Below, in pieces: positions 23,764 to 25,051 of a stretch of 64,000 nt of DNA. A model generated the notes under the pieces. It was not told the origin of the DNA. It searched no databases and worked only from the letters and a program-made list of their open reading frames with translations. Source of the DNA: Veillonella parvula. GTDB taxonomy: Bacteria > Bacillota > Negativicutes > Veillonellales > Veillonellaceae. The stretch spans positions 246,997 through 310,996 of the forward strand of contig NZ_JAGZYE010000001.1 of NCBI RefSeq assembly GCF_018378075.1, written 5' to 3'. A program made the translations under genes and the position numbers. Each line of letters begins with the position of its first letter. Within the stretch, counting starts at the first letter, position 1.

Positions 23764-24462
23764 ATGGCAATTACTGCTGCTTTGGTAAAAGAATTGCGCG
23801 ACATGACTGGCGCAGGTATGATGGACGCTAAAAAAGCATTGGTTGAAACTGACGGTAATATCGATAAAGCGGTTGACCTTCTTCGTGAAAAAGGTTTGGC
23901 TGCGGCAGCTAAAAAAGCTGGTCGTATTGCAGCTGAAGGTGTAGTACAATCCTACATTCATGCTGGTGGTCGTATCGGTGTTTTAGTGGAAGTTAACTGT
24001 GAAACTGACTTCGTTGCAAAAACTGATGATTTCCAAAATTTAGCACGCGACATCGCAATGCAAATTGCAGCTGTAAATCCTACATACTTGAACCGTGAAG
24101 AAGTTCCTACTGAAGTAATTGAACACGAAAAACAAGTATTATTGGAACAAGCTAAAGTAGAAGCTGAAGAAGACGTTAAAGCTGGTCGTAAACCAAAACC
24201 TGAAGCTGTTTTAGAAAAAATGGTTGCAGGTCGTATTGAAAAATTCTATAAAGAAAATTGCCTATTAGAACAAGTATTCATTAAAGATGGCGATAAAACT
24301 GTTACAGACATCATTAATGAAAGTATTGCAAAAATCGGTGAAAACATCAACGTACGTCGTTTTGTTCGCTATGGTTTAGGTGAAGGCATTGAAAAACGCC
24401 AAGATGACTTCGTAGCAGAAGTAATGGCATCTGTTAATTGCTGCTTTAGCAAAATCCACTGA
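23764..24462 (+). CDS. tsf: Elongation factor Ts (short form); extreme C-terminus atypical (see findings)
   Basis: [29 protein letters not shown]-like N-terminus and [12 protein letters not shown] core; the C-terminal tail CCFSKIH looks non-native. Confidence 0.85.
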
Positions 24463-25051
24463 TTTAGAAATCGCGATTGTTGTTGGTGGCGGTAACCTAT
24501 GGAGAGGTTTAGCTGGTAGCAATCAAGGTATGGATCGTGCTACTGCTGACTATATGGGGATGCTAGCAACAGTGATGAACTCCTTAGCATTGCAAGATGC
24601 ATTAGAGCAAGCTGGTGTAGATACACGTGTTCAAACAGCTATTGAAATGCAAGAAATTGCAGAACCTTATATTCGTCGTCGCGCTATTCGTCATTTAGAA
24701 AAAAAACGTATCGTTATCTTCGGTGCTGGCCTTGGTAAACCTTACTTCTCTACAGATACAACAGCTGCATTACGGGCCGCTGAAATTGAAGCCGATGCTA
24801 TTTTAATGGCAAAGAAATTTGCAGATGGCGTATATGATTCTGACCCTAAGACAAATCCTAATGCTGTTAAATTTGATGAATTAACATATAACGAGATTAT
24901 CACAAAAGAATTAAAAGTAATGGATGCTACATCTACAACTTTATGTAAAGATAACAATATTCCTATTATTGTATTTAGCATGGATATTCCTGGTAATATT
25001 ACAAAAGCTGCTAAAGGTGAAGAAATAGGGACCATTGTTCGAGGAGAATAA
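24440..25051 (+). pseudogene. pyrH: UMP kinase PyrH, 5'-truncated (N-terminal ~30-35 codons, RBS and start absent; ORF track calls only the internal-Met part 24530-25051)
   Basis: Frame-2 reading from about 24431 gives [24 protein letters not shown]...[18 protein letters not shown]...[19 protein letters not shown], the PyrH region C-terminal of the KLSGEAL loop, but upstream in-frame codons are stops and overlap the tsf 3' end. Confidence 0.8.

Follow-up and report, generated by a model that had tools for sequence, protein, structure and literature searches.

The junction between tsf and pyrH in this V. parvula sequence, where the gene for EF-Ts runs straight into a pyrH without a beginning, is almost certainly an artefact and not a real biological feature. 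In our judgement, the 181 bp that are missing there were very probably lost through a join error during metagenome assembly and not through a deletion in the organism, which itself most likely carries a normal tsf (226 aa), the intergenic hairpin, a ribosome-binding site (RBS) and a normal pyrH (241 aa). The gap has the properties of an artefact bounded by k-mers, in that both of its breakpoints lie k-1 nucleotides from strain SNPs, the same ends recur in independent assemblies and a near-identical strain has the locus intact. Throughout, 'the window' denotes the whole 64,000-nt stretch of DNA that was analysed, and positions in the tsf-pyrH locus outside the window are given in the coordinates of its nearest strain, L007.

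A BLAST alignment to ten V. parvula relatives placed the missing 181 bp between window positions 24435 and 24436, corresponding to L007 3199-3379. The relatives' loci each matched the window in two ungapped blocks, which meet at 24435|24436 and skip 3199-3379, with 97.9-100% identity in both flanks. All ten relatives, which were fetched by way of frr, have the arrangement intact: tsf encodes 226 aa, pyrH encodes 241 aa, and 62 bp separate the two genes; none of them has the short form. The original prediction had proposed a clean deletion, not a frameshift, of 0.15-0.25 kb that fuses the 3' end of tsf to about codon 35 of pyrH, and had suggested an alignment to related genomes as a check; the comparison with the ten relatives bears this out, and both estimates were close, the loss being 181 bp long and reaching into codon 37.

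The missing piece begins with the end of tsf (GGTAAATAA, i.e. GGT AAA TAA, encoding G225 and K226 of EF-Ts in codons 225-226 and the stop), continues through the entire 62-bp spacer with its 14-pair hairpin and the RBS GGAGGAG, and ends with nucleotides 1-110 of pyrH, which run from M1 into the E37 codon as far as its second base and include the KLSGEAL motif. The start codon, RBS and spacer that had been reported as absent are thus all inside the lost segment. In a hairpin scan the spacer hairpin was found to consist of AAGAGAACAC-CGTACA-GTGTTCTCTT, and we saw no Rfam match above chance in the lost spacer, whose only candidate element is this terminator-like structure. Its stem is also kept in the lineages whose EF-Ts ends in ...ASVNA (L126-L131), where the loop differs and the flanking coding DNA is approximately 80-85% identical; in these lineages pyrH encodes 242 aa and its end adjoins the start of frr. 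Comparison of the sequences at both ends of the missing piece revealed 0 bp of microhomology, i.e. the junction is blunt. We therefore discarded a repeat-mediated collapse or a microhomology-driven loss, and the word 'collapse', which had been used for one of the candidate causes, does not fit a place with neither repeat nor microhomology at its breakpoints.

The genes around the junction, as read from the ORFs and the relatives, are in the order rsgA-rpe-rpsB-tsf-pyrH-frr-(83-aa ORF)-uppS-cdsA-dxr-rseP, and those described here are all on the forward strand. The first gene of the rpsB-tsf-pyrH-frr cluster, rpsB, is an intact 250-aa ORF for ribosomal protein S2 at 22913-23665 (the relatives' identical gene matches PF00318). 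Its length is subject to a natural in-frame polymorphism (281 versus 250 aa), since in one metagenome strain and in V. parvula DSM 2008 the gene is longer by approximately 93 bases at its 3' end (window ~23604-23608; L005 and L008 2277-2364); the window has the short form, as do eight of the ten relatives. Downstream of pyrH, frr at 25057-25617 is intact and encodes a ribosome recycling factor of 186 aa, whose sequence is the same in V. parvula DSM 2008 (CP001820.1) and in many metagenome contigs. It is followed at 25617-25868 by an ORF of 83 aa that overlaps the start of uppS and has no Pfam match; this ORF is kept in the V. parvula relatives and has 89 aa in the ASVNA lineages. Compared with the canonical Bacillota cluster, for which we took that of V. 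parvula DSM 2008 (CP001820.1), the window thus has the same gene order and flanking genes and identical or near-identical sequences, but is without the tsf stop codon, the spacer hairpin, the RBS and pyrH codons 1-37.

Within the cluster, the tsf ORF as it stands (23764-24462) encodes 232 aa. Codons 1-224 at 23764-24435 (...AEVMASV) are native, being collinear, at 96.6-99.97% identity up to base 24435, with tsf of the ten relatives and matching the EF-Ts family models TIGR00116 and PF00889, and the last two native residues, GK, are replaced by the eight residues NCCFSKIH. This tail and its TGA stop at 24436-24462 derive from pyrH codons 37 (third base) to 46 read in the wrong frame. Among the best 120 EF-Ts homologues from a search of 5.8e9 sequences, the natural C-termini were ...ASVGK, ...ASVNA, ...ASVGQ and a few others, and in none of the 120 did the protein end in NCCFSKIH. 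In the +1 frame, immediately after the TAA at 24422-24424, the DNA encodes pyrH sequence that runs into the 173-codon ORF at 24530-25051. The remnant comprises codons 38-241 and the stop (24437-25051), without start codon, RBS and residues 1-37, and in a tblastn search its residues 38-241 (24437-25048) were 100% identical to PyrH of the relatives. Examination of the ORFs and translations upheld all statements of the original prediction about the sequence at this junction.

If the sequence is taken as given, no complete UMP kinase can be made from it. There is no ATG, GTG or TTG in the pyrH frame between the TAA at 24422 and position 24530, pyrH's own GGAGGAG and ATG both lie in the missing 181 bp, and the only ORF left in this frame that begins with a start codon is that of 173 aa starting at M69. 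It covers positions 63-232 of the 233 positions of TIGR02075 with 245.7 bits, barely over the cut-off of 243.9, whereas PyrH of an intact relative covers positions 2-232 with 328.3 bits; against PF00696 it aligns at positions 71-234 of 234. Residues 1-37, which comprise beta1, the beta1-alpha1 loop (K12-L-S-G-E) and alpha1, are absent from all frames of the window, and the GGGN loop, encoded at approximately 24485-24496, precedes the first start codon (ATG 24530) and is therefore not part of the translatable ORF. In bacteria, this enzyme is considered essential. In 80 of 80 PyrH relatives from GTDB genomes the match begins at residues 1-6, and for UMP kinases of solved structure the alignment with the Veillonella protein starts at residues 2-6. 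In the UMP kinase of S. aureus, the beta1-alpha1 and GGGN loops form the UMP site and the K13A substitution strongly reduces activity (PMC12847342), and UMP kinase has been described as an antibacterial target (PMC12847342, PMC3082897). In the 64-kb window, searches by tblastn, which the original prediction had advised for the genome, and by blastn found neither a second pyrH or an N-terminus of PyrH nor a relocated copy of the 181 bp.

The lesion stands alone in the window. Between positions 368 and 64000 the sequence is otherwise collinear with that of the relatives, which were fetched around four other genes too, with 0 gaps, and the 181-bp loss is the only structural difference in these 63.6 kb. 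The nearest strain, L007, shows 1 mismatch in the 3198 nt to the left of the junction and 0 in the 5182 nt to the right (1 in 8380) and has the full 181 bp, which are also present in two further strains at least 99.9% identical to the window (L010 and L002). The 30-mer across the blunt junction was not found in the GTDB representatives (one genome per species), a 24-mer across it was not found in JGI metagenome contigs in a scan uncalibrated for Veillonella content, and 153 billion gene positions include no record of exactly this 232-aa fusion protein. An equally uncalibrated scan of metagenomes for any base other than G after the left flank (pattern ending in H) found none.

The 173-aa product of the remnant was found elsewhere only on short metagenome scaffolds (<20 kb), nearly all of which have N runs in or beside the tsf-pyrH junction. 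In five ENA scaffolds from five samples, the sequence reads ...GGCATCTGTT, then 167, 158, 97, 131 or 10 N, then AATTGCTGC..., and so the borders of the N runs coincide to the base with the two breakpoints of the window. These scaffolds (L120, L122, L123, L124 and L125) belong to one study, with record names of the form VALL22-1_..., and represent different strains, with 4-45 mismatches in pairwise comparison. The L120-L125 scaffolds also share further breaks, namely 4054|4055 in frr, where 10 N stand in and no base is lost, and 4644|4767 in the 83-aa ORF upstream of uppS, and several scaffold termini coincide. Other scaffolds of the same region have gaps of 100 N flanked by 55-bp duplicates, and these duplicated flanks are a pointer to k = 55. 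We had considered that the N-containing scaffolds came from the SPIRE pipeline, whose study codes their record names resemble, and dropped this idea; SPIRE assemblies are reported to have been made with MEGAHIT at default settings, without k = 55 and without N (PMC10767986).

Losses without N also occur in such scaffolds. In L013/L119 (ENA SHAO19-1_SAMEA5616640 scaffold_112), 36 bp are missing from the 5' region of pyrH (locus 1080-1100; L007 3354-3389) with no N at the join, which indicates that blunt N-free joins do arise there and adds a second one to this hot spot; with the SNP set of this analysis, the ends of this loss do not fit the 54-nt spacing described below. A 314-aa protein on a 54-kb ENA contig (P0001) is an EF-Ts in which approximately 88 residues are duplicated internally, so that ...EEDVK occurs twice, and the copies have strain-level differences; it is probably another misassembly of a strain mixture.

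The positions of the breaks follow a simple rule. For each distinct contig end we asked whether a polymorphic site lies 54 nt inwards, i.e. at the end position minus 54 for a right-hand end or at the start position plus 54 for a left-hand start, scoring polymorphism on an independent set of sequences from which the N-run scaffolds had been excluded. This was the case for 12 of 16 ends (binomial P ~2e-10 at a SNP density of 8.5%), four ends did not fit, and other offsets from 40 to 70 gave 0-4 fits, those neighbouring 54 giving 0-2. At the tsf-pyrH break the ends 3198 and 3380 lead to the sites 3144 and 3434; at the downstream breaks 4054, 4055, 4644 and 4767 lead to 4000, 4109, 4590 and 4821; and the others, 3365, 4620, 4570, 2613, 2628 and 2697, lead to 3419, 4566, 4516, 2667, 2682 and 2751. 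Both breakpoints of the window are among the fitting ends (3198-54 = 3144, window 24381; 3380+54 = 3434, window 24490), both of these sites are T/C polymorphisms, and the chance of both breakpoints lying 54 nt from SNPs is approximately 0.007. The length of the loss agrees as well, 181 being 289 - 2x54, the core of a unitig bounded by SNPs 3144 and 3434.

These offsets are the pattern of k = 55 de Bruijn unitigs and indicate how the join very probably came about. The window's sequence would have been produced by what was presumably a k = 55 de Bruijn graph assembler, from a sample with more than one Veillonella strain. If the co-occurring strains differed at 3144 (T/C) and 3434 (T/C) and were identical in between, the 289 bp from 3145 to 3433 would form a unitig common to the strains, one that could be entered by two paths and left by two. 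To its left, a strain-specific unitig would then end at 3198, its last 55-mer being the last to include SNP 3144, and that on the right would start at 3380 with the first 55-mer that includes SNP 3434. As the shared unitig would overlap each neighbour by 54 nt, dropping it would remove a core of 289-108 = 181 bp. In the five other assemblies the scaffolder bridged this spot with runs of N; for the window, the left and right unitigs would have been butt-joined in its source without filler, and the window is free of N throughout. The two downstream breaks of the scaffolds are explained in the same way, because the SNP pairs 4000/4109 and 4590/4821 are spaced such that k = 55 unitigs either abut (4054|4055) or leave a gap of 122 bp (4644|4767). 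For the strain in the window the proposed mechanism calls for a haplotype with C at 3144 and A at 3180, which was not seen among the sequences compared; the C allele at 3144 occurs only in L037 and L043, both of which also differ at 3180. In its k-1 SNP offsets, its ends that recur across samples and strains and its lost piece equal to a shared unitig minus two overlaps, the gap is like the breaks known from segments shared between strains in short-read de Bruijn metagenome assemblies; it differs in being closed without N, so that it resembles a deletion in finished sequence.

Other origins of the recurrent ends were considered and set aside. Co-occurring Veillonella species that diverge at 3199 and 3379 are not the cause, since no variation at these positions or their neighbours was found in any Veillonella sequence compared, including those of species only 94.7% identical. 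The widespread ASVNA lineage, which has an A after the Val codon, is too divergent in its DNA for shared k-mers. We seriously weighed a real deletion allele that coexists with the wild type in those samples, and consider it superseded by the 54-nt rule, because the latter also explains the other ends, i.e. 4054|4055, 4644|4767 and the scaffold termini.

For the window itself, the original prediction had left three candidate causes, of which the assembly artefact is favoured by the 54-nt offsets and the recurrent ends, while a compensated lesion and an engineered edit found no support. We prefer the artefact because neither of the other two predicts 54-nt SNP offsets at both ends or matching N-filled gaps in five unrelated samples. 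A genuine chromosomal deletion of 181 bp that inactivates pyrH, with UMP kinase supplied by a gene outside the window or with the deleted allele persisting in a mixed population as a defective or minor variant, appears very unlikely to us. The flanks are clean in the sequence as given, only 10 N stand at the spot in L125, so that the scaffolder's estimate of the gap must have been near zero, and, as far as can be read from the sequence, frr keeps its own RBS and could still be transcribed by read-through, the hairpin also being lost. Against this stand the coincidence of both breakpoints with positions exactly 54 nt from common SNPs, at the chance given above, the lack of microhomology, an intact locus in a practically identical strain and the failure to find the junction or the fusion protein in any collection searched. 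With an enzyme regarded as essential and no second copy in the 64 kb, a real deletion would demand a second enzyme elsewhere, and the idea of a V. parvula strain with this deletion at its only tsf-pyrH locus, living without the canonical UMP kinase and making UDP by another enzyme or an unlinked copy, strikes us as slightly more improbable still. A genuine pseudogene formed by deletion would likewise show a truncated ORF without start codon and RBS next to a neighbour gene with a frameshifted tail, but here accompanying mutations are absent (the remnant matches functional PyrH at 100% identity), the gene is essential, a near-identical strain has the locus complete and the breakpoints fall at positions of an assembly graph. 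The residues that would have been lost are, moreover, catalytic (PMC12847342).

The least probable of the explanations is, in our view, a deliberate edit, whether a deletion engineered in the laboratory or an in silico excision from an otherwise normal sequence. A blunt cut without microhomology, unique to the window and set in 63.6 kb that are otherwise perfect, is what such an edit might look like, but a designed cut would not be expected to coincide to the base with the contig ends of five scaffolds or with the 54-nt SNP offset; it is also out of frame, respects no gene boundary and makes no sensible knockout design, and deletion of an essential gene would not be expected to give a viable strain. 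A different kind of question is at which step the filler disappeared. The source scaffold may have had an N run, as in L120-L125, that was later stripped or closed by gap closing, by N removal at submission or in the preparation of the window, and this seems possible to us, if somewhat doubtful. In five scaffolds these very ends do border an N run, in one case of just 10 N, and the window is free of N; the data contain no sign of such a step, however, and the N-free loss in L013 makes an extra step unnecessary. This account differs from that of a direct butt-join solely in the step that dropped the filler.

As biology, the junction has no consequence, since that of the organism is almost certainly normal. 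It is as a matter of quality control that it deserves attention: an N-free join in an otherwise flawless 64 kb mimics the loss of an essential gene. It would lead to a false pseudogene call and to a false 'missing pyrH' in completeness estimates and metabolic reconstructions, and protein databases would acquire an EF-Ts with a chimeric C-terminus. Breakpoints at k-1 from known strain SNPs, together with a match to the borders of N gaps in other assemblies, provide a general diagnostic that could be used to flag errors of this type in metagenome-assembled genomes.

In one of the related genomes, the metagenome-assembled L023 (GCA_018366315.1), two other in-frame losses were observed, one of approximately 78 bp in coaBC (375 versus 401 aa; window 7594-7672) and one of 84 bp in priA (699 versus 727 aa; window 12420-12503). 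We considered them as a second example of the offset rule and rejected this, as no k-offset SNP pattern was found and neither loss shifts the frame; natural indels or an artefact of another kind may account for them. Finally, the only Rfam match at gathering score in the window is an ordinary SAM riboswitch (RF00162, 79.4 bits) on the forward strand at 10218-10318, upstream of metK (10368-11558).
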